DNA from: Candidatus Undinarchaeota archaeon | GTDB taxonomy: Archaea; SpSt-1190; JASMDC01 | Assembly: GCA_964519305.1 (NCBI GenBank) | Contig: CAZFHY010000001.1 | Span: 282,132-346,131 of the forward strand | Direction: 5' to 3' | DNA: 64,000 bases | Part shown: positions 19,401 to 55,491 of the stretch, one piece after another | Layout: every line of letters begins with the position of its first letter | Numbering within the stretch: the first letter of the stretch is position 1 | The notes under the pieces: generated by a model | Databases searched by the model: none | What the model saw: the letters and a program-made list of their open reading frames with translations, nothing else | What the model was told of the DNA's origin: nothing | Translations under genes and position numbers: made by a program

Positions 19401-20555
19401 TCAAGGCAGAGCGCCCGCGTCACGAAGTATCGCATCCTCTCGCTCGAACACCGCCTCGCGCCCATAAGGAGATGCCGCTTCGCGGTTCACCGCGCCCATC
19501 CTGGCTGCGAGCTCAGGATTATCGGCCACACGGGCCAAAGCGCTCCGCAGCTTTCGAGGTGACCGCGGTTGCACAAGGAAGCCCCCTTCATGAGGGAGCA
19601 CGTTCGCGATGCCCTCGACGTCGGTGGCCACCACAGGCAGCCCCGCGCCCATTGCCTCGATGAGGGCGAAGGGCATCCCCTCCTCCTCGGAGGCCATAGC
19701 GAACACGTCGGCCGCGGCGAGCACATCAGGCACTTCACCGGATGGGACCGCGCCGAGAAAAGTGGCGTCCGCGCCTTCTTTTTCAGCTAGGGAAACGAGG
19801 GCTTCGCGCTCCGGACCGTCGCCGCACGCGACCAGACGTATGCCCGAAAGCCCGGCCACGGCGCGGACCAGATCGTCCACCCGCTTGATCTCGGCCAACC
19901 GGCCAACGAACACGACCAGACGACCGTCCTCGGGAATACCGTGGCGCTCTGCCAGCCGTTTCCGCGCTGCTGCCCGGTCCGGTGCTTTTTTAGGGAGGTC
20001 GACCCAGTTGGGGAGCACCTCGACCTGGTCCGGGCGGGCGCCCTGGGCTTCGAGCCGCTGACGCATCAGGTCTGTGCTTGTGATTATCCGGTCCGAGTGC
20101 CGTACGACCATCCTGTACACCTGTGAGACGAACGGGCCAAGGAGAGGGGACCGGTGACGGCGCATCTGACCCATCCAATCGTACTCCAGGGAAAGTACAA
20201 CCGGGGGGTGTGAGCTGACACTGGAGAGACCCAGCGCTACGGGGACGATGCCCACGGGCCCGTACACACGGACAGCGGTGAGGGTGGACGCAAGACGACG
20301 CACGGCCGCTGCTCCGCTGAGCACGAAACCAGGGTGCGAACGGCCCACGGGCAGGTGGATAACACCTTCCCCGAGCTCGTCGCTCATGTCCCGCTCGTCC
20401 GCGCTGAGTAGGATCACGCGGTCGTACAGCTTCCGGTAATGGTCGACCCGCGCGCGTACAAGCTTGTCGAACACGCCACGCTCGCATCCCTCCTCGAGAC
20501 GACAGTCGGTGGAGTACACCAGGAGCAGTGTCGAAGTCGACTCCATACCGGCCAT
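19401..20555 (-). CDS. GT4 (GT-B fold) glycosyltransferase
   Basis: LPNWVD, VFVGRL..IKRVD, CGDGPER, ADVFAMASEEEGMPFALIEAMGAGLPVVAT. Confidence 0.92.
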   Translation of the reverse strand: MAGMESTSTLLLVYSTDCRLEEGCERGVFDKLVRARVDHYRKLYDRVILLSADERDMSDELGEGVIHLPVGRSHPGFVLSGAAAVRRLASTLTAVRVYGPVGIVPVALGLSSVSSHPPVVLSLEYDWMGQMRRHRSPLLGPFVSQVYRMVVRHSDRIITSTDLMRQRLEAQGARPDQVEVLPNWVDLPKKAPDRAAARKRLAERHGIPEDGRLVVFVGRLAEIKRVDDLVRAVAGLSGIRLVACGDGPEREALVSLAEKEGADATFLGAVPSGEVPDVLAAADVFAMASEEEGMPFALIEAMGAGLPVVATDVEGIANVLPHEGGFLVQPRSPRKLRSALARVADNPELAARMGAVNREAASPYGREAVFEREDAILRDAGALP

Positions 20556-20608
20556 CACGGTCACCTGTCCCACGAAGATTTATATTGCCTTCGCGGTCAG
20601 TTGGTTGC

Positions 20609-21709
20609 ATGGCCAAGCCCGCCAGTGGTGTCGACCGGCTCGGTACCCTCGAGAAGGCCCGCTTCCTTGCTGGCGGCCTTGTCGAGTCCTCGCGGGTAGG
20701 CCTTGACCGTCTGAAAGGATGGGAGCGCCCACGGTTCCTGATGAACGTGGTCACTTGGCGGTGCAACGCCCGTTGCGTGATGTGCAACATACCTCGCCGT
20801 CACGATCCGAAGGAGGAGCTCGGGCTGGACGACTACCGCCTAATCCTAAAAGACCGACGGTTCTGGCGTGGTCTGCGGGCCATGAACGTCACCGGTGGCG
20901 AACCGTTCCTGCGCGAGGACCTGCCCGATCTGGTGGCGATGTTCGACGAGGCCTGTCCCGGGCTCGAACGTATCGCCTTCTCCACTAATGGCATGCTCAC
21001 CGACCGTGTAACCTCCGCCATGAAGGAGGTGCTCGAGCGTGTGCGCGTGCCCATCGACGTCACCGTGAGCCTCGACGGTGTGGGTGAGGTCCACGACCGG
21101 ATCCGCGGCGTGGATGGGGCTTTCGAAAAAGTCATGGCCACCGTGGACGCGCTCCTCCCTATGGACGAGCCAGGACGGTTCCATCTCTACGGCCAGTGCA
21201 CGCTCTCCCAGGCCAATATCGCAGGCTGGCGCGAACTGGAGGCTTACGCTGCCGAGCGGGGATTCCATGTTTCCCCAGGCATCTCGGCATTCCTGGACTC
21301 CTACTTCGACAACGCCGATAAGGAGGACGAACTGGCGCTCACGTCCGAGCAGGTGCTCGATGTGTTCGACCGACCAACGGCACGCGAGCACTTCATCCGC
21401 CGGCAGGTGCGCGAGCACGAGCGGTCACTTCCCTGTGGTTGTGGCACCGGGTCCTTCGAGCTCTACCCCAACGGCGATGTCTACCTCTGCTACCAGACGA
21501 AGCCGGTGGGGAACGCCCTCGAGCTTGGTATCACGGGGGCGTGGACATCCCCCGAGGCGGCGAAGGTGCGCAAGGCCATCGGCACCAAGAAGATGTGCGG
21601 TGATTGCTTCTGGGCGTGCGACCTGGCCACGGCGGTGAAAGGGGACCTCGGTTCTCTTGTACGCATGGGTGCTGCCCACGTCCGGATGAAGCTCGGTCCC
21701 AAGGCGTGA
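20609..21709 (+). CDS. Radical SAM protein with SPASM/twitch domain
   Basis: CNARCVMC, TGGEPFLR, STNG, VSLDG...HDRIRG, C-terminal CGCG...GDVYLC...CGDC...C. Start ATG 20609 shares a TATA (about 20578-20586) with the divergent GT4. Confidence 0.9.
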   Translation: MAKPASGVDRLGTLEKARFLAGGLVESSRVGLDRLKGWERPRFLMNVVTWRCNARCVMCNIPRRHDPKEELGLDDYRLILKDRRFWRGLRAMNVTGGEPFLREDLPDLVAMFDEACPGLERIAFSTNGMLTDRVTSAMKEVLERVRVPIDVTVSLDGVGEVHDRIRGVDGAFEKVMATVDALLPMDEPGRFHLYGQCTLSQANIAGWRELEAYAAERGFHVSPGISAFLDSYFDNADKEDELALTSEQVLDVFDRPTAREHFIRRQVREHERSLPCGCGTGSFELYPNGDVYLCYQTKPVGNALELGITGAWTSPEAAKVRKAIGTKKMCGDCFWACDLATAVKGDLGSLVRMGAAHVRMKLGPKA

Positions 21710-46629: not shown

Positions 46630-47577
46630 CTAGGTGAAATCGATTATCACGCCGTTATACCGGTCGGCCTTGGGAAGTGTGCCCACCAGACGGTCACGAT
46701 CGAACACCTTGACCCGATGGTCGTCCACGGTGACCTTGTTGCCCTTGGTGAAGATCCTGTGCTCTTTTCGGGGAGAGAGCACCTCGCACTGCTCGTACAG
46801 GACCGTTCCCCCCTTCACGGTGCCGTGAAGACGTATCCCCTTCCCGACACCGAAATACAGCACAGGGACCCGGAGGTTCTTCTCGATGGCACGGGCGTAC
46901 CCCTCATCCTCATTTCTAATGACAGCGAGAAGCCTGTCGGCGAACGCCACGGACCGGGCGCAGCTGAACGAGCAGGGATAGTGAGAGATCAGGGCGAATG
47001 GGACCGGCATCGAGAGGTCCAGGTACTGGGTGAGGAAGGAGGGCTTGCCCGGTGTGTTGCCATACGCAACTCGAGCGTAATCGCATTGAGCGTCCCGGCG
47101 TGCCTTCTGGAATGTCCTTATGCAACACGACGGGTACCCCAGAGCCCTGCCGAAATCGGCACACATCTCGTCGTTCAGTCCGCCCCCGAACCTGTTCATC
47201 ATGGGTGTATGGACCTCGTGGTCGATGTCCCGGGTCCTCTTTGAGATGTCCTCGTCCCGCGATACGTAAAAGTAGACCTCTTCCAAAGGTTGCCTTCGAA
47301 GGAGGCTGACCGCGTAGTCGAATGGATTGTCAGGATTGCGCACCCGGGCGAACTTCGAGTGATGGACCGAACAGTCCATCGAGCCGGCAAGCTCCCGCAT
47401 CTGTCCGAGCATCCTGAAGGGCCCCTGTATCCGAGTACACGGTTTTAGCCCGTGGGTGGCCGCGATGAACTCGTTTAGGCTGTTGTCATGTACGTAGCGG
47501 GGCTCGGTGAAGAACAGACCGTACCTTCTGATGAACTCCGGTGACAGGTGTTCTGTCTCGATCCTCATCGGCAGCAT
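46630..47577 (-). CDS. DUF483 domain-containing protein
   Basis: GLKP, FGRALGYPSCCIRTF, LISHYPCSFSCARS; start ATG 47577 downstream of TTTTTATA. Confidence 0.75.
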   Translation of the reverse strand: MLPMRIETEHLSPEFIRRYGLFFTEPRYVHDNSLNEFIAATHGLKPCTRIQGPFRMLGQMRELAGSMDCSVHHSKFARVRNPDNPFDYAVSLLRRQPLEEVYFYVSRDEDISKRTRDIDHEVHTPMMNRFGGGLNDEMCADFGRALGYPSCCIRTFQKARRDAQCDYARVAYGNTPGKPSFLTQYLDLSMPVPFALISHYPCSFSCARSVAFADRLLAVIRNEDEGYARAIEKNLRVPVLYFGVGKGIRLHGTVKGGTVLYEQCEVLSPRKEHRIFTKGNKVTVDDHRVKVFDRDRLVGTLPKADRYNGVIIDFT

Positions 47578-47674
47578 ATGGATGCCCTCCGGTCTATAAA
47601 AAGATACATATCCGGGGCGGGAATACCATCCCAAGGGAAAAGACTATATACGCAGGTTCACGGCCCGAGGGGCC

Positions 47675-48640
47675 GTGGCCATCGAGACCGTCGTGGACCC
47701 GGGCATTGAGCATGGCACCTATCAGGACATGCTCGACCGTATCGATGGTTACGACGACGACGCGGTCCACGTGCGCACTATCGATAGTTACCTCGATGAC
47801 CGGTCCCTGGTGAGCAGCGCCGGTAATCCAATCTCGTACGTCGACCTCACCTATGCCGAGGATCCTGACAGCACAATCGTCATCACCGCTGGCCGACACT
47901 CGGACGAGCACGGTGGCCCTGAAGCCGCTGTAGAGCTCGTAGGACGCATCCTCGCCTCTCCCGGGATGCGGGAGTATCTAGAGCACGGGGAGATCACGAT
48001 CGTCCCTGCAGTCCACGTGGACGAGTACGCCAAGCCGGCGAATGACCGCACTTACAAGCTCGATCTGTACGGTCACTACGCTGTACCTATCCCCCCCTTG
48101 AGCCTTAGGGGTTGTGACGGGTGCCGCAACACAGGTCATGATTCCTATCGCGAGAAGGGTCTGGTTCCCGATTATGAAGGCAAGTTCTCCACCTTCGACC
48201 AGCGATTCGTCCTCGATGATGAGGCTGAACACGGGTATGTCCGACTTGATGACGAGATGATATCCAAGGAGGCGTACGCTGTCGCGCGGCTCCTGGAAGA
48301 GAAGAAGTCCTCACGCGACAAGGTGCTCTTCACCGCCGACCTCCACGAGACCGACCACAAAGGGTTCAACAACTGCACGATCTACTATAACGAGGATAAC
48401 GAGCATGTGGTCCGGGCCATCAGTGACCGTATACGCAAACGGTTCAACTGGAACGGTGTCAACGTCCTCAAGGACAAGTCCACCACGTTCTCCGGATTCT
48501 CCCATGCCCTCGGCATCGATGCCTACACCACCGAGGGCGCGCCCTATAAGTTCGATCGACGCCGGCCATTTTCTGCGCGCGTGGAGCAGCAGCTCATCGC
48601 TCTGGACGAGCTTCTGGACCACTACGTCGTGAAGGGATAA
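47675..48640 (+). CDS. M14-like zinc carboxypeptidase / AstE-AspA family, paralog 1
   Basis: ITAGRHSDE (HxxE), IVPAVH, RN, ADLHE, TTEG; upstream GGGAAAAGACTATATA. Confidence 0.78.
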   Translation: MAIETVVDPGIEHGTYQDMLDRIDGYDDDAVHVRTIDSYLDDRSLVSSAGNPISYVDLTYAEDPDSTIVITAGRHSDEHGGPEAAVELVGRILASPGMREYLEHGEITIVPAVHVDEYAKPANDRTYKLDLYGHYAVPIPPLSLRGCDGCRNTGHDSYREKGLVPDYEGKFSTFDQRFVLDDEAEHGYVRLDDEMISKEAYAVARLLEEKKSSRDKVLFTADLHETDHKGFNNCTIYYNEDNEHVVRAISDRIRKRFNWNGVNVLKDKSTTFSGFSHALGIDAYTTEGAPYKFDRRRPFSARVEQQLIALDELLDHYVVKG

Positions 48641-48727
48641 GGGTATTCTTTCGAATCGAATAGCTGCTATCAGATGTCAGTTCAAGATTATCTCTTCACC
48701 CGCGTTGATTCACGAAAAAGGAATTAG

Positions 48728-48758
48728 TGAGGAGGGCAGCCGGACGCCTCCCTCCTCA
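48728..48758 (-). terminator. Hairpin plus T-tract downstream of the 25-aa ORF
   Basis: TGAGGAGGG-13nt-CCCTCCTCA, 9-bp stem, followed on the minus strand by TTTTT (plus-strand A5 at 48715-48719). Confidence 0.6.
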
Positions 48759-48777
48759 GGTGTAGGTGTATGGTCGG

Positions 48778-48855
48778 TTAAGTATGGGTTGGGTATATGG
48801 GGTATGGGTGCACGTGATGAGCTAGAACGAGTATCTTCGGCTTTTTCACCACCAT
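48778..48855 (-). CDS. Putative 25-aa peptide MVVKKPKILVLAHHVHPYPIYPTHT
   Basis: ATG 48855 to TAA 48778; TTTATA box ends 25 nt upstream; terminator-like hairpin about 20 nt downstream. Confidence 0.5.
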   Translation of the reverse strand: MVVKKPKILVLAHHVHPYPIYPTHT

Positions 48856-48892
48856 GCAGTAGTAATATGGTGTTCCAAGTATAAAGGAAAAT

Positions 48893-48912
48893 AGCACCAC
48901 TGCAGTGGTGCT
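48893..48912. promoter_or_regulatory. Perfect 20-bp palindrome AGCACCACTGCAGTGGTGCT, candidate operator
   Basis: Exact self-complementarity; lies between the divergent TATA boxes at about 48880 (-) and about 48937 (+). Confidence 0.6.
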
Positions 48913-48966
48913 CTTCTGTGACCCAAGGGCAAACCATATTAACGGACGACCCTGCCGCCCAGCACC

Positions 48967-49926
48967 GTGGCCATCGAGACGGGGGTGGACCGTGAGCTTG
49001 AGCATACGACCTACACCGATATGCTCGACCGGCTCCAGGGGTACGACGACCCCGCCGTCCACGTCCAGACCATCGACGGCTATCTCAATGACCCATCCCT
49101 TGTCAGTGACCAGGGGAAGCCCATCTCTTACGTGAACCTATCGTACACGGACTCACCCGATAGCACTATCGTAATCACAGCTGGTCGCCACTCCCCCGAG
49201 TACGGCGGTGCGGAAGCCGCCATGGAAGTGGTCGACCGGGTCCTCGCCTCTCCCGAGATGCAGGCCTACATGCAGCATGGTGAGGTCACCATCGTGCCCG
49301 TGGTCCATGTCGACGAGTATAGCAAGGCCGCGGACCAGCGGATGCCCGGGTTCAAGATGGTGGGCTACCACATCCCGCCCCCCGAGTCGTACAAGCGGTT
49401 CGACGCGTGCCGGAACTCCGGCCACGACTCCTACATCCGAGGGGACAGTCCCCCGGGCTGTAAGGACCGGATGACCCACTTCGACCAGATATTCGATCCG
49501 GAGAAGGACTCCGGCGGCTGGGGAGGCCCCCCTCATCGTGAGCATACCGCCATCACCCCTGAAGCCTATGCGGTCGCCCGCCTCCTGGAGGGCAAGAAGG
49601 AGCAGGGGAAGGTACTATTCGCCGCTGACCTACACGAGACCGATGCTGACGGGTTCGAGTACTGCACACTCGTTTTCGACAAGGAGCTCGTGCCTATCGC
49701 CGATGTCATGGACGAGCGGGTGAAAGAGCAGTACCCCACGAGCGGGACCCGGTTCATGGACGGCCTCAATACCTTCTCGGCCATGTGCATGGCCTTCGGG
49801 GTTGATGCCTACACCACCGAAGGCTCGCCCCGGGACGGGTGGCAGCGCAGGCCGCTGGCCGAGCGGGTGGAGCAGCAGCTACTGGCACTGGACGCGCTTC
49901 TCGACCATTACGTAGCCGAGAAGTAG
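48967..49926 (+). CDS. M14-like zinc carboxypeptidase, paralog 2
   Basis: ITAGRHSPE, CRNSGHD, ADLHE, TTEGSP; collinear with paralog 1. Confidence 0.78.
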   Translation: MAIETGVDRELEHTTYTDMLDRLQGYDDPAVHVQTIDGYLNDPSLVSDQGKPISYVNLSYTDSPDSTIVITAGRHSPEYGGAEAAMEVVDRVLASPEMQAYMQHGEVTIVPVVHVDEYSKAADQRMPGFKMVGYHIPPPESYKRFDACRNSGHDSYIRGDSPPGCKDRMTHFDQIFDPEKDSGGWGGPPHREHTAITPEAYAVARLLEGKKEQGKVLFAADLHETDADGFEYCTLVFDKELVPIADVMDERVKEQYPTSGTRFMDGLNTFSAMCMAFGVDAYTTEGSPRDGWQRRPLAERVEQQLLALDALLDHYVAEK

Positions 49927-49942
49927 GCGCTCAGGATCACGA

Positions 49943-51685
49943 TCACACCGGGAGCCCTATCCTCAGCTCGCGCCCTTCCTTTCTCACGGGGAGCTCGATG
50001 GTCCTCTTGCCACCGATCCTCAGGACGGCCATGCCCCGGGCCCTGTCGAGGAACAGCGCAGCGGTCTCCTCCCTGTCGTAGAGCTTGCGCACATCGGTGT
50101 AGATGCGTGATGGTCCCTCGCCCGTGCTGGCGAGAAGGTCCCGGGTCAGTCCGACGTTCGTCCTCAGCACCGCCCCTGCCTCGTCGAGCCGGATCTCCAC
50201 CCACTTCTCATCCGAGCTAAGGCGGATGGCCGCGCCGCCGTTGACCTTCTCCGCCTCCACTAGGTCGGCCCAGGCCATGTCCAGCTCCTCCTTGAGGAAG
50301 TCCTGGAGCGCCTCCTCACCACTGCCGGGGACCTGGTCCCAGCCGAACAGGAACCGCTCCGTCCTTAGATGGAACTCGACGGTCTTCCCGTCGCTGGTCC
50401 GGAGGGTGGCCCCGTTCTCGGCCTCGTTGATGGTGATCTGCACCCACTGCCCGTCCCTGACGCAGCGGATGGTCCTTCCGTCATCGCTCCTCTCTACCGG
50501 AGCTTCCTCTGCCCACTCCAGGTCGAGCGTGTCGACGCAGTACCTCTGCAGGGCCTCGCTCCCCACTCCGGGGATGCCCCCCAGGTCCATAACAGGATCA
50601 TTGCGTACCCGGATTACGTCCCCGTCCATGGCCTTCTCGATCTCTGACATCTCCGCCCATTCTATGCCTAGGAAGAGGTGGAGGTAGGTCTCCAGTCGCC
50701 CCTCGTCACCGTACGGAATCTTTTCCCATGTGAGTATGTAGCCCGCTTCGCTGATCTCGCGGTACAGTCTACGCTCCTTGCGCCAGTCGTGGACGGCGGC
50801 GACGCTCAGGAAGAAAGTGATGGCGATGCCGGGGATCCCGATGAACTCGAAGAGGAGGATGCTCCAGTACCACATCTCCTTGGGGATCTCATACGGCTCT
50901 TGCTCTACCTTGAGCCTGACGGTCCCGGGATACTCCTCGGGGAGGGGTTCTTCCACGTCGAGGATCTCGTAGTGGATCACGTAGCGGTTGCCAGAGGGCT
51001 CGATCATGTCGATGCCGCAGTACCGGTACTCCACCGAGAGCACCAAGTTGACTAGCCAGAGGTAGGCGTTCATGAGGGTGGTGGCCACGTAGTTCTGGAT
51101 GATAGGATCGTACTCCACCTCTGCCGATGCCACGGTAATGTTCGTCCCCTCGTCCACCACCTCCACGGCCACTGCAAGCTCGCTGACGTCCTCGCTCATC
51201 ACGAAGGAGCATGCGTACGTAGCTCCCGGTTCCAGTCCCACGGTGATGTTGTTCCCCTGCTGGTGCCCGCCCTCGTACACGACAACGTCGGCGATCGTGC
51301 CTTCAGCGTTCTCATATATGCCCGTCACCGTGAAGAGCCCTACAGTCAGGAGGAGACCTGTGGCGAAGAGAATGATCGCCATGAGCATCAACCAGTTCCA
51401 CTCGAGCCAGCCGGCACCCTCCTGCTCTTCCTCGGAGGCGTCGGGCTCAGCGTCATCCCGAGCGGGTTTGGGCACCACGCTCCCCAGAGCATCGTCCACC
51501 GCATCCTCGTCGTACCCTGTCTGCAGTAGGCGGTCCCGCAGCTCGTCCGCAGTGAAGCCCTGTTCCAGACATTGCCGGACGTACTGGTGGAGAGGTTCCT
51601 GCTCCTGGGAGGGATTCGCGGCGTTCCCGCTCTCCCCTAGCGATGTCGTGGCCTCTGAGCCGGATGGTCCTTCGTCAGATGACAT
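49943..51685 (-). CDS. Two-TM membrane protein with three C-terminal repeats of an uncharacterised W-x-x-(I/V)-P-G domain
   Basis: N-terminal LHQYVRQCLEQGFT.DELRDRLLQTGY.EDAVDDAL; two TM helices; repeats begin YILTWEKIP, DLGGIPG and FLFGWDQVPG, each followed by WA(E/D)..(I/V/A)E(K/R)..(D/G)G..IR. Confidence 0.75.
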   Translation of the reverse strand: MSSDEGPSGSEATTSLGESGNAANPSQEQEPLHQYVRQCLEQGFTADELRDRLLQTGYDEDAVDDALGSVVPKPARDDAEPDASEEEQEGAGWLEWNWLMLMAIILFATGLLLTVGLFTVTGIYENAEGTIADVVVYEGGHQQGNNITVGLEPGATYACSFVMSEDVSELAVAVEVVDEGTNITVASAEVEYDPIIQNYVATTLMNAYLWLVNLVLSVEYRYCGIDMIEPSGNRYVIHYEILDVEEPLPEEYPGTVRLKVEQEPYEIPKEMWYWSILLFEFIGIPGIAITFFLSVAAVHDWRKERRLYREISEAGYILTWEKIPYGDEGRLETYLHLFLGIEWAEMSEIEKAMDGDVIRVRNDPVMDLGGIPGVGSEALQRYCVDTLDLEWAEEAPVERSDDGRTIRCVRDGQWVQITINEAENGATLRTSDGKTVEFHLRTERFLFGWDQVPGSGEEALQDFLKEELDMAWADLVEAEKVNGGAAIRLSSDEKWVEIRLDEAGAVLRTNVGLTRDLLASTGEGPSRIYTDVRKLYDREETAALFLDRARGMAVLRIGGKRTIELPVRKEGRELRIGLPV

Positions 51686-51855
51686 GTTCCATCCTCATAG
51701 TTCCGATCGTGAATCTCCTGACGGCACACTCCCGGCCCCGGGAGGATCCCTTTCCCGCTACTATAAAGGCAGTCTATCCTATAAAAGCCTGACACTTGGG
51801 CACCTCGACACCCGGGGGAAAAGCCTATAAACGGCCGGCCCGGCCGCGGACCACA

Positions 51856-52809
51856 ATGGTCATCGAGACCGCTGTCGACCGGGACCTCGAGCACGGCACC
51901 TACACCGATATGCTCGACCGGCTCGACGGTTATGACGATCCGGCCGTCCACGTCCGCACCATCGACGGCCAGCTCGGGGACAACACTCTCGTGAGCGACC
52001 TGGGAGGTTCCATCTCTTACGTAGACCTCTCCTATGCAGATAATCCTGATTCGACCATCATCATCACCGCAGGCCGGCACTCACCCGAGTACGGTGGCGT
52101 CGAGGCCGCCGTTGAGCTCGTCGAGAAGGTGCTCGCCTCCCCCGGGATGCAGGAATACCTACAGCACGGCGCGGTAACCATCGTCCCAGCGGTCAACGTG
52201 GACCAGTACTCAGTACCGGTGGACGAGCGCAAACCCGTATGGGACCCACAAGGGAACGGGATCATCCGGCGATGGAAGTGCGATGCCGACCGGAACTCCG
52301 GCCACGACACCTACCTGACCGATGGCGAGGCCCCCTCCTACGAGGGTCAGCTGAACTGGTTCGACCAGAGCGCTGTTGTGGCCATGAGCGAGCCGGGCTG
52401 CCTCCGGGAACTGCCATCGAACTTCATCACACGGGAGGCCTACGCTGTCGCCAGGCTCCTGGAGGAGAAGGCAGCGAACGGAAAGATCCTCTTCACTGCT
52501 GACCTCCACGAGACCTGCAAGCCCGGTTTCAGTTACGCCACACTGGTGTTCGATGAGAAGCTCGTCGAGACCGGGGAGGAGGCCACCGCCCGGGTGGGCG
52601 AGGTCTACCCGGTAAAAGAGACGGCTCTTATGGAGGACAGCAAGGGCACCTTCTCCGCGTTCTGCGCGGCGAAGGGGATCGACACCTACACCCTCGAGGG
52701 CTCTCCCTTCGACGGGGAGGAACCACGACCGCTGAGCGAGCGTGTGGAGCAGCAGATGCTGGCACTGGACGCACTGCTCGACAAGTACATTGGAACGGAG
52801 GCGTCCTGA
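51856..52809 (+). CDS. M14-like zinc carboxypeptidase, paralog 3
   Basis: Start ATG 51856 after GGGGGAAAAGCCTATAAA; AGRHSPE, DRNSGHD, ADLHE, TLEGSP. Confidence 0.78.
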   Translation: MVIETAVDRDLEHGTYTDMLDRLDGYDDPAVHVRTIDGQLGDNTLVSDLGGSISYVDLSYADNPDSTIIITAGRHSPEYGGVEAAVELVEKVLASPGMQEYLQHGAVTIVPAVNVDQYSVPVDERKPVWDPQGNGIIRRWKCDADRNSGHDTYLTDGEAPSYEGQLNWFDQSAVVAMSEPGCLRELPSNFITREAYAVARLLEEKAANGKILFTADLHETCKPGFSYATLVFDEKLVETGEEATARVGEVYPVKETALMEDSKGTFSAFCAAKGIDTYTLEGSPFDGEEPRPLSERVEQQMLALDALLDKYIGTEAS

Positions 52810-52812
52810 TTA

Positions 52813-53772
52813 GTGGTCATCGAGACGTCCGTCGATCCGGGGCTCGAGCACAACACCTACGGCCAGGTACTGGAGCGGCTCCACGGGTACACGGACCCGG
52901 CGGTCCACGTCCACACCATGGACGGATACCTCCAGGACCCTGCTCTGGTGAGCGGGTGGGGCTCGCCCATCGCATTCGTGGACCTCTCCCTCACTGAGAA
53001 CCCTGACAGCACCATCATCATCACTGCAGGTCGTCACGCCCCCGAGTACGGTGGCGCCGAGGCCGCAGTAGAGCTCATAGACAAGGTGCTCGCCTCTCCC
53101 GGGATGCGCGAGTACCTCGAGCATGGCGAGATCACCATCGTGCCCGCCGTCCACGTGGACGCGTACGGACTGCCGCCGGACCAGCGGCCGGCCATGTACA
53201 TACCTGAACCCGGTGTGTACCTCGACAAGGAGGACTTCGCCCGGTTCGACGCCGACCGGAACGACAGCCATGACACATACAGGTTCGATCCAGCGACCCC
53301 GACTTACCAGTGCGAGCTCAATTATTACGAGCAGCTCTTCGAGGACCCTGAGCTCGATCCGAACGGGATGGCCTGGCGCAGGACGTTCCCCCTCATGACC
53401 AGGGAAGCGTTCGCCGTGGCGCGACTGGTCGAGGAGAAGAAGGCCAACCGCGAGAGCGTGCTCTTCGCCGCCGACCTACACGAGACACCCCGGGAGGATT
53501 TCACCTACACAACCGTCGTGTACGAACCCGAGCTGGTGCTCGTGGCCGAGGACGCGGCCAAGCGCGTGGGCGAGAAGTACCCCACACAACCCTCGCTCCT
53601 CCACGACGACAGGTGCACGTTCACCGGGTTCTGCAACACACTGGACATCGACGCCTATACCACAGAAGGCTCGCCCTTCGACGGCAGCCGTCACAGGTCC
53701 ATGGCAGAGAGGGTGGAGCAGCAGCTTCTGTTCCTTGATGCGCTGTTCGAGCACTACCTCGAAAAGGAGTAG
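52813..53772 (+). CDS. M14-like zinc carboxypeptidase, paralog 4
   Basis: GTG start 3 nt after the paralog 3 stop; AGRHAPE, DRNDSHD, ADLHE, TTEGSP. Confidence 0.78.
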   Translation: MVIETSVDPGLEHNTYGQVLERLHGYTDPAVHVHTMDGYLQDPALVSGWGSPIAFVDLSLTENPDSTIIITAGRHAPEYGGAEAAVELIDKVLASPGMREYLEHGEITIVPAVHVDAYGLPPDQRPAMYIPEPGVYLDKEDFARFDADRNDSHDTYRFDPATPTYQCELNYYEQLFEDPELDPNGMAWRRTFPLMTREAFAVARLVEEKKANRESVLFAADLHETPREDFTYTTVVYEPELVLVAEDAAKRVGEKYPTQPSLLHDDRCTFTGFCNTLDIDAYTTEGSPFDGSRHRSMAERVEQQLLFLDALFEHYLEKE

Positions 53773-55080: not shown

Positions 55081-55491
55081 CTATACGCCGATGCTGTCCT
55101 CTGTGAGCAGCTTGCGCTGGAACGCCGTCCGCTGTCCCATGAGGATGTACTCGGGCAACAGGTCGGGGTCCGCGCTCGGGCCGGAGACACATCCCAGCTC
55201 GTCGAAGAGCTTGGCCTGTTCGGTGCGCTCCATCCCCGTGAGGTCCTCACGAGTGTATCGCTCCACGCCGGGCACGTCATCGTAGAGGCCCTGAGCAAAG
55301 GCATCGGCCTCCAGCCTGACGATCGAGTAGATCAGGTCCCCGTTGGACAGGTCACTGGTCGGGGCGTGAGGTCCCTCGTCGCGTACCGGTAGGTCGCGGT
55401 AGACGTCCTGCAGCTCGGTGAAGGACATGGGCTCAAGCTCTGCGACGGTGTATACGTGGATACCGGGATCGGCTGCCTCGTAGGGGATCAT
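55081..55491 (-). CDS. Small acidic protein with two tandem Rho-N/HeH-like helical repeats
   Basis: PGIHVYTVAELEPMSFTELQDVYRDL...DLIYSIV versus PGVERYTREDLTGMERTEQAKLFDEL...LLPEYIL; BRE/TATA GGGGAAAGGTATAAATA upstream. Confidence 0.65.
   Translation of the reverse strand: MIPYEAADPGIHVYTVAELEPMSFTELQDVYRDLPVRDEGPHAPTSDLSNGDLIYSIVRLEADAFAQGLYDDVPGVERYTREDLTGMERTEQAKLFDELGCVSGPSADPDLLPEYILMGQRTAFQRKLLTEDSIGV

Follow-up and report, generated by a model that had tools for sequence, protein, structure and literature searches.

Archaeal repressors of the TrmB, Phr and MDR1 types have operators that lie between the TATA box and the start point of transcription, a gap that is the classical position for a repressor. 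Precursors of ribosomally synthesized and post-translationally modified peptides (RiPPs), such as PqqA and the lasso peptides, are recognized through RiPP recognition element (RRE) or PqqD domains. Leaderless translation is documented in Haloferax (PMC7261190), and ribosome profiling (Ribo-seq) in archaea has reportedly yielded hundreds of unannotated small open reading frames (ORFs) and also small RNAs that are occupied by ribosomes yet untranslated (PMC11456600, PMC10117724, PMC12482152, bioRxiv 10.1101/2025.10.28.685009 and PMC6560208). The locus considered here is the 326-bp spacer between two Peptidase_M14-like genes, M14-1 and M14-2, in a 64,000-nucleotide stretch of a Candidatus Undinarchaeota genome (the window; contig CAZFHY010000001.1, positions 282,132 to 346,131). 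An earlier inspection of the letters, hereafter the sequence-only reading, had singled out a 25-codon ORF on the minus strand of this spacer as a possible RiPP precursor or signalling peptide.

M14-1 ends with its stop codon at 48640, and M14-2 begins with a GTG at 48967 and is apparently leaderless. They are two of four Peptidase_M14-like paralogues (47675-53772) that lie next to a DUF483 protein and whose Pfam matches are weak but consistent. The M14-1/M14-2 spacer has no long counterpart elsewhere in the array, where only 3 nt separate M14-3 from M14-4 and a minus-strand ORF of 580 aa lies between M14-2 and M14-3. The interpretation that we favor, with a confidence that falls slightly short of even, is that the spacer may harbor a minus-strand unit about 125-140 nt long that is under the control of a transcription factor and somewhat more likely acts as RNA. 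As to the product itself, a small RNA would have close to an even chance, and a peptide appears a serious though improbable contender.

The genome that contains the window (G000; 3.63 Mb, 59.7% G+C) is that of an uncultured archaeon assembled from marine metagenomes, and its phylum comprises 17 species genomes in the collection used, of which only one (G001) is congeneric. When the spacer was compared with its counterpart in G001, 34 differences and no indels were found in 326 aligned bases (89.6% identity, 10.4% divergence), while the third codon positions of 17 nearby aligned genes diverge by 27.4% (1346/4918). Conservation is therefore above the level of third codon positions (binomial P = 5e-14). 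Identity to G001 is 82.3% and 79.1% in the flanking M14 genes and 67-80% in three short neighboring spacers; two other long apparent spacers reach 87-88%, and one of these contains an unlisted 136-aa gene. The differences are unevenly distributed along the spacer. There are 13 in the 72 positions downstream of the M14-1 stop (48641-48712), 3 in the 77 positions that include, on the minus strand, a T5 tract, a hairpin, the 3' untranslated region (UTR) and the last four codons of the ORF (48713-48789), 8 in the 51 positions of the ORF body (48790-48840), none in the 60 positions that hold the first five codons, both candidate TATA boxes and half of a palindrome (48841-48900), and 10 in the 66 positions up to the M14-2 start (48901-48966). 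Hence, the invariant blocks coincide with the promoter and operators described below (48841-48900) and with the 3' tract and hairpin (48713-48789). Conservation of the spacer as a whole exceeds chance; its individual sequence features do not, and the 25-codon ORF and a TATA match of 5.8 bits are each unremarkable alone.

When contigs of four runs were aligned to the window, a third lineage, about 91% identical to positions 47000-51000, was detected in contigs of runs X9, X12 and X13 that bridge the spacer. Only its indels were used, not its substitutions: among the rows listed there are five in the spacer, all at 48643-48679 and none inside the 25-codon ORF. This is an unassembled member of the genus, closer to the window than G001 and present in other marine and estuary samples. 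A metagenome scan with an invariant 24-mer retrieved two contigs, both 100% identical to G001 over 3326 bases.

Promoter geometry was derived from 1186 long ORFs with a free upstream region. TATA-like hexamers peak at -31, -30 and -29 from the start codon (59, 62 and 65 matches in the 1186 upstream regions), and the sharpness of the peak indicates that leaderless genes are common in G000. The consensus of these leaderless promoters is A-rich at -36 to -33, continues with TTTAWA and has a C at -1. On the minus strand of the spacer, the hexamer TTTATA pointed out by the sequence-only reading is indeed found at 48885-48880. It starts at -30 from the ATG of the ORF and is invariant in G001. This candidate promoter, here termed P1, scores 5.8 bits (a moderate value) with a genome-trained matrix for the TFB recognition element (BRE) and TATA box, and its +1 is predicted at 48856. 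P1 thus predicts a transcript start at or beside A48855, that is, a leaderless AUG, and the start context GC-ATG-G, with C at -1 and G at +4, agrees with the leaderless consensus. The caveat that a purine-rich BRE is missing was well taken, as positions -36 to -33 read TTTT where leaderless promoters prefer A. An alternative BRE/TATA, P2 (GGAACACCATATTAC, 48862-48876, minus strand, 5.3 bits), is likewise invariant in G001. Its predicted +1 lies at 48838, downstream of the ATG, and a start there would exclude the ATG from the RNA. P2 also mirrors, with a 1-nt shift about the palindrome center at 48902.5, the BRE/TATA of M14-2, GGCAAACCATATTAAC. Matrix scores similar to those of P1 and P2 occur at 0.8-0.9% of positions outside long ORFs, so that the scores alone are not evidence for either promoter. 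The TATA box of M14-2 (48935-48942, plus strand) scores 8.8 bits with a predicted +1 at 48966/7 and ranks among leaderless-type promoters; the divergent promoter proposed earlier for M14-2 is therefore real by this matrix, and a matrix scan of the plus strand of the spacer detected no other promoter-like site. A scan for bacterial-type promoters and terminators, which is not applicable to an archaeon, flagged only the palindrome and an ATTTTCC on the minus strand.

Because ATATTACTACT was seen in several leaderless promoters, the inverted repeat YACYAC-Nx-GTRGTR was counted for spacings x = 0-12. With x = 6, G000 has 17 sites, 13 of them outside long ORFs, a fraction that makes up 11% of the genome; other spacings in the range gave 0-2 sites outside long ORFs, and direct-repeat controls gave 0-3. 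All 13 N6 sites outside long ORFs have a TATA-like hexamer upstream on exactly one strand. Its start most often precedes the site by 9-13 nt; in some cases it is found at -4 to -7 or about -20. The core of the family reads TACTACT-N4-AGTAGTA. One member, TACTAC-TGCATG-GTGGTG, is found at 48847-48864 in minus-strand reading, with the ATG of the 25-codon ORF in its central spacer. At this site the minus strand has hexamers at -21 and -4 and the plus strand has none; C9:128572 and C1:558876 (contig:position) likewise have hexamers at about -22 or -4 to -6. The focal site lies over the predicted start point and is identical in G001 (C95:117596-117613). The remaining sites outside long ORFs are C1:153326, C1:403996, C1:558876, C8:22999, C9:128572, C11:80982, C13:114452, C13:115557, C13:116476, C14:48739, C16:49236 and C29:1593. 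When 11 ORFs downstream of N6 sites were scanned, three showed a Pfam match (GATase class I/Peptidase_C26, Arginase family and Peptidase_M14) and eight did not. G001 has 12 N6 sites, including the focal one, and several apparent counterparts differ only in the central spacer or by changes that preserve purine or pyrimidine. The N6 repeat has the look of an operator, and its candidate regulon would comprise M14, C26/GATase and arginase-family genes along with the eight ORFs that lack a Pfam match. The motif YACYAC-N6-GTRGTR is newly defined here, and a factor that binds it is presumed; the 18-mer consensus TACTACTATATAGTAGTA was not found in a text search of a paper library.

Other members of the family deserve mention. 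Four further N6 sites fall inside the long-ORF mask, and here too a TATA-like stretch precedes at least one site (C4:79846). Three sites cluster within 2 kb at C13:114452-117114, where two of the promoters are identical and the ORFs behind them (260 and 202 aa, without Pfam match) agree in all of their N-terminal 50 residues, which suggests a recent tandem duplication within the candidate regulon. At C1:153326-153400, an N6 promoter is followed by ATGGTG, which resembles the focal start and opens an ORF of only five codons; a membrane-protein-like ORF is found about 60 nt beyond.

The perfect 20-bp palindrome AGCACCACTGCAGTGGTGCT (48893-48912), noticed earlier between the two divergent promoters, is perfect and placed as described. 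It represents an N4 form of the same repeat, CACCAC-TGCA-GTGGTG, upstream of the TATA box, with its center 17.5 nt from the minus-strand TATA. G001 keeps the 8-nt arms and differs only in the central TGCA, which is CACA. The genome has eight exact N4 matches, and only two of these, the focal one and another in C9, lie outside long ORFs. Beyond what had been noticed, the palindrome thus recurs once with the same gap to a TATA box: at C9:123954, GCTATTT comes after CACCAC-CGTA-GTGGTG, and the gap to the TATA box is again 8 nt. Behind this promoter (C9:123954-123985) come an N6-like site and a 178-aa ORF that belongs to no known family, and an amidohydrolase gene is adjacent. This promoter and the 178-aa gene have no counterpart in G001. 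The shared orientation and the 17.5-nt distance between center and TATA tie the palindrome to P1 and not only to M14-2, and it can be considered a candidate transcription-factor site.

Downstream of the ORF, the minus strand carries a candidate terminator (48715-48758), whose two components had also been described correctly: a GC-rich 9-bp hairpin (48758-48728; arms 48728-36 and 48750-58, 100% complementary, 13-nt loop) and, 8 nt further, T5 at 48719-48715. The only difference from G001 in this element is in the loop. On the plus strand, A5 precedes the hairpin and no T run stands behind it, so that the order of hairpin and T5 fits the minus strand only. Between stem and start, the predicted RNA contains a G-poor, C/A-rich tract with CCCAUA/CCAUA/CACCUA repeats (48759-48812, minus strand; two G in 54 nt), which spans the last 11 codons, the stop codon and the entire 19-nt 3' UTR. 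The tract is unpaired in both the minimum free energy and the centroid folds; windows with at most one G make up 0.03% of the genome. From 5' to 3', the minus-strand RNA is predicted to form a small stem-loop, to continue unpaired over a C/A-rich stretch of about 50 nt and to end in the hairpin of the candidate terminator. The AUG is in the predicted 5' stem, one G-U pair of which is G-C in G001. Across the last four codons, even at their third positions, and across the 3' UTR there is almost no variation between G000 and G001.

A tentative model can be drawn as follows. Transcription would start at 48855 (P1) and/or near 48838 (P2) and end at the hairpin and T5 (48758-48715). The promoter would be bracketed by two inverted repeats, the N4 form upstream of the TATA box and the N6 form over the start point. 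The N6 form appears to lie between TATA box and start point at a dozen further promoters, among them promoters of M14, C26/GATase and arginase-family genes, and a shared operator would imply that the unit is switched jointly with a group of genes for peptide/amide hydrolases. On the plus strand, the first T5 after the M14-1 stop is at 48842-48846 and no T run longer than three is found across 48641-48841, so that transcripts reading through from M14-1 would run across the entire minus-strand unit. The minus-strand RNA would then be fully complementary to M14-1 read-through towards M14-2, and the simplest mechanism may be cis-antisense pairing or transcriptional interference at the M14-1/M14-2 junction. 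A dual function is conceivable, as the 25-codon ORF may also be translated. In favor of a small RNA, the unit has candidate promoters and a candidate end signal of its own on the minus strand, all conserved, and several signs point to the RNA level: the G-poor tract that runs through the stop codon, the near-invariant 3' end, the atypical codon usage of the ORF and the location of the P2 start past the ATG.

Other observations speak against the model of a regulated small RNA. The ATG lies exactly at the 5' end predicted from P1, and the ORF is intact in G001 with a ratio of non-synonymous to synonymous differences (pN/pS) of 0.32. The end signal is weak in this genome, as T5 is found within 100 nt downstream of 75/772 genes and A5 downstream of 51/772. 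The minus-strand fold is not better than those of shuffled sequences (z = -1.09), no Rfam family matches the unit, and the only compensatory pair between the two genomes lies outside it. When the C-rich tract was matched against 2470 start regions, no excess over shuffles was found (lowest energy -30.9 kcal/mol for the real tract and -29.6 to -37.5 for five shuffles), and the neighboring M14 genes ranked in the middle of the list. The total of 12 N6 sites in G001 is hardly above the nine of a backwards-read control. Furthermore, the 13 runs that contain DNA of the locus include no RNA runs, and the comparison rests on two genomes, G000 and G001.

The main alternative is a leaderless small-protein gene, in which an mRNA beginning at A48855 would encode a functional basic peptide of 25 aa rich in His, Pro and Tyr; we consider this possible, on balance unlikely. 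The peptide might, for instance, act as a micropeptide that binds metal, or serve the neighboring M14-like enzymes as a modulator or as a substrate, and it would be co-regulated with the hydrolases through the operator. The ORF (48778-48855, minus strand) translates exactly as claimed, from ATG 48855 to TAA 48778, into MVVKKPKILVLAHHVHPYPIYPTHT, and the sequence-only reading had asked whether the frame is conserved in relatives. It is: the product in G001 is MVVKKSKILVLDHHGHPYPLYPTHT, with the same start, stop and length, and the third lineage has none of its listed indels within the ORF. TTTATA at -30, the modal leaderless position, together with C at -1 and G at +4, fits a leaderless start, and the N6 promoter at C9:128572 has its TATA box likewise about 20 nt before the site. 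Eight differences separate the two ORFs, four synonymous and four non-synonymous (P6S, A12D, V15G and I20L), and every His and Tyr and three of the four Pro are kept. The differences cluster in the ORF body (8/51), and the synonymous rate of codons 2-25 (0.23) is close to the third-position background (0.27). A bias toward synonymous change, also asked for earlier, may be present (pN/pS 0.32, the best of six frames; the remaining five have 1-2 synonymous among 7-8 differences), with P = 0.10 before correction for six frames. Among the four replacements, P6S, A12D and V15G are radical ones. Codon usage is atypical: G+C at third positions is 56% versus 74% for genes, and the log-likelihood ratio of 2.4/-2.1 bits (real gene windows, 9.2 ± 6.5/7.4 ± 5.5; intergenic small ORFs, -3.9 ± 8.3/-5.1 ± 7.5) places the ORF at the 13th/5th percentile of real 24-codon windows and in the top 19%/32% of 1863 intergenic small ORFs. 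The bipartite composition that had attracted attention, a basic/hydrophobic part and a His/Pro/Tyr tail, does exist; the tail, however, is the in-frame translation of the G-poor CCCAUA-type repeat tract, which continues for 19 nt beyond the stop codon. The TATA boxes and operators already explain the invariance of the start region, so that a peptide need not be invoked for it. The AUG is in a predicted stem at the 5' end, and P2 would exclude it. No homologue, paralogue or annotation was found: the 25-, 59-, 75- and 94-aa ORFs of the spacer are all absent from a 15-billion-protein collection by exact look-up, and tblastn of the peptide against its own genome gave no paralogue (best other match, E = 1.1). 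Taken on its own, translation of the 25-codon ORF seems rather doubtful. An attractive speculation, and quite an unlikely one, is that a leaderless micropeptide is co-switched with lineage-specific M14-like, C26-like and arginase-family hydrolases and acts upon them; it would then be a metal-handling partner, an inhibitor or a carboxypeptidase-trimmed signal. The longer ORFs of the spacer do not fare better as genes. The 75-aa minus-strand ORF was rejected because it lacks codon periodicity (93/93/89% identity at the three codon positions) and a Pfam match, the 59-aa plus-strand ORF because it has one synonymous versus seven non-synonymous differences and no Pfam match, and the 94-aa ORF shows no coding signature against G001.

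The small-RNA interpretation must also be weighed against explanations that dispense with a minus-strand product. The spacer might be regulatory DNA (operators, a bidirectional promoter and possibly a G-quadruplex) that sets M14-2 expression and 3'-end formation of M14-1, without a stable product. The palindrome is 55-74 nt upstream of the M14-2 start in a region that is dyad-symmetric about it, the TATA boxes and the two operators fully account for the invariant 60-nt block, and the plus strand carries a rare G-quadruplex motif, GGGTTGGGTATATGGGGTATGGG (48786-48808; four G runs of at least three, loops of 1-7), antisense to codons 16-24. There are 211 such motifs in the genome, 42 of them outside long ORFs; G001 keeps the four G runs after three substitutions. 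This explanation leaves unaccounted for a near-invariant, strand-specific hairpin/T5 block 130 nt from any promoter, and N6 operators elsewhere are downstream of TATA boxes that drive transcripts; we regard it as improbable. A plus-strand element, either a structured RNA or the 3' UTR of M14-1, is very unlikely. M14-1 read-through is likely, given that no T run longer than three precedes 48842, and the resulting RNA would contain the G-quadruplex motif. Nevertheless, the plus-strand fold has z = +0.22, which speaks against the structured plus-strand RNA that the sequence-only reading had named as a contrary possibility; no plus-strand promoter-like site exists in the spacer except that of M14-2, and the 59-aa ORF has the substitution pattern given above. 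An Rfam search at E <= 10 gave two irrelevant weak matches, both outside the spacer; no tRNA was found. Most improbable of all is the original proposal of a RiPP or signalling-peptide precursor matured by neighboring DUF483/M14 enzymes and a PqqD-like RRE. It can invoke the bipartite peptide, its conserved His, Tyr and most Pro residues, and the adjacent array of four M14-like paralogues with the DUF483 protein. However, the 'orphan PqqD' was not found, as none of the 62 window ORFs of at least 50 aa (62/62 scanned with Pfam) matches a PqqD or RRE family at E <= 0.01. No radical S-adenosylmethionine (rSAM), YcaO, lanthionine, lasso-type or cyclase family is encoded within about 8 kb, and the only rSAM/SPASM gene (20528-21709) is 27 kb away, amid glycosyltransferase and mannosyltransferase genes. 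The x-x-P-x-(L/I) leader motif is not kept either, since Pro6 is Ser in G001 (KKPKIL versus KKSKIL, two sequences). The ORF is convergent to M14-1 and divergent from M14-2 and forms an operon with no enzyme. Of the 'regulated precursor' once proposed, what survives is a separately controlled minus-strand unit, which the promoter and operator layout makes plausible; the natural-product idea is not supported and should be dropped unless a modified peptide is detected.

As regards the neighborhood, the M14-like paralogues are 52-59% identical to each other, and their Pfam M14 matches are marginal and extend over about 75 residues. Within the phylum the family is found only in G000 and G001 (2/17 genomes). 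A search of 5.8 billion proteins with M14-2 gave no more than 12 relatives at E <= 1e-10, a number too small for synteny in distant taxa to be usable, and when relatives of the M14-2 locus were sought among genome contigs none was confirmed. A sequence search of the PDB with M14-2 gave no match at E < 0.9, and NCBIfam, applied to 12 neighbor proteins, gave only weak arginase-family matches and none for the M14-like paralogues. The 580-aa minus-strand ORF (49943-51685) could not be aligned to G001. The interval between M14-2 and M14-3 is about 1 kb in that genome versus 1.9 kb here, and represents a variable segment of an otherwise collinear locus. An apparent 465-nt spacer elsewhere is occupied by the unlisted 136-aa ORF (55081-55491, minus strand), which has neither a Pfam nor an NCBIfam match; its three codon positions are 93/96/75% identical to those of G001, a pattern that clearly marks it as coding.

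The organism itself raises a question of placement. G000 and G001 have genomes of 3.6-3.8 Mb, and the remaining 15 species genomes of the phylum measure 0.6-1.2 Mb. Estimated contamination is 4.3% and 6%, respectively, and the G001 orthologue of M14-2 is labeled at NCBI as 'Candidatus Undinarchaeales archaeon'. Either the two genomes form a branch with large genomes, probably free-living, within a lineage of small ones, or their placement needs a check.

If real, the unit would be a gene for a small RNA or a micropeptide, subject to regulation, in a lineage of archaea that has received very little study. Should the micropeptide act on the hydrolases, a peptide-level feedback loop would exist in a large-genome relative of the tiny-genome Undinarchaeota. 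The operator family may be the more useful result, as it defines a candidate regulon of a dozen promoters that is directly testable and that covers peptide/amide hydrolases and many proteins of unknown function. There is also a lesson for annotation: where a short ORF comes with a neat promoter and terminator, the locus can just as well be a small RNA embedded in operators.

Comparison with described systems places the locus as follows. With RRE-dependent RiPP precursors it shares a basic/hydrophobic N-terminal part and a His/Tyr-rich C-terminal part; it differs in that no RRE or maturase gene is nearby, the proline of the motif is not conserved and no operon links the ORF to an enzyme. Like archaeal leaderless mRNAs, and as in many genes of G000, it has a TATA hexamer 30 nt before an AUG, whereas the focal ORF is only 25 codons long, has atypical codon usage, places its AUG inside a candidate operator and has a second candidate TATA box whose predicted start is behind the AUG. 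The intergenic small RNAs and spRNAs of Methanosarcina mazei and Haloferax volcanii are alike in their short unit, their own promoter and a short ORF of uncertain status; unlike them, the focal unit lies between two operator sites of a local candidate regulon and has no sequence or Rfam kinship with them. With regard to operators of the TrmB, Phr and MDR1 types, the focal site is unusual in lying over the start point and in having a second, N4 form upstream of the TATA box; the family to which it belongs is similar to them, with an inverted repeat directly downstream of the TATA box at many promoters of related genes.

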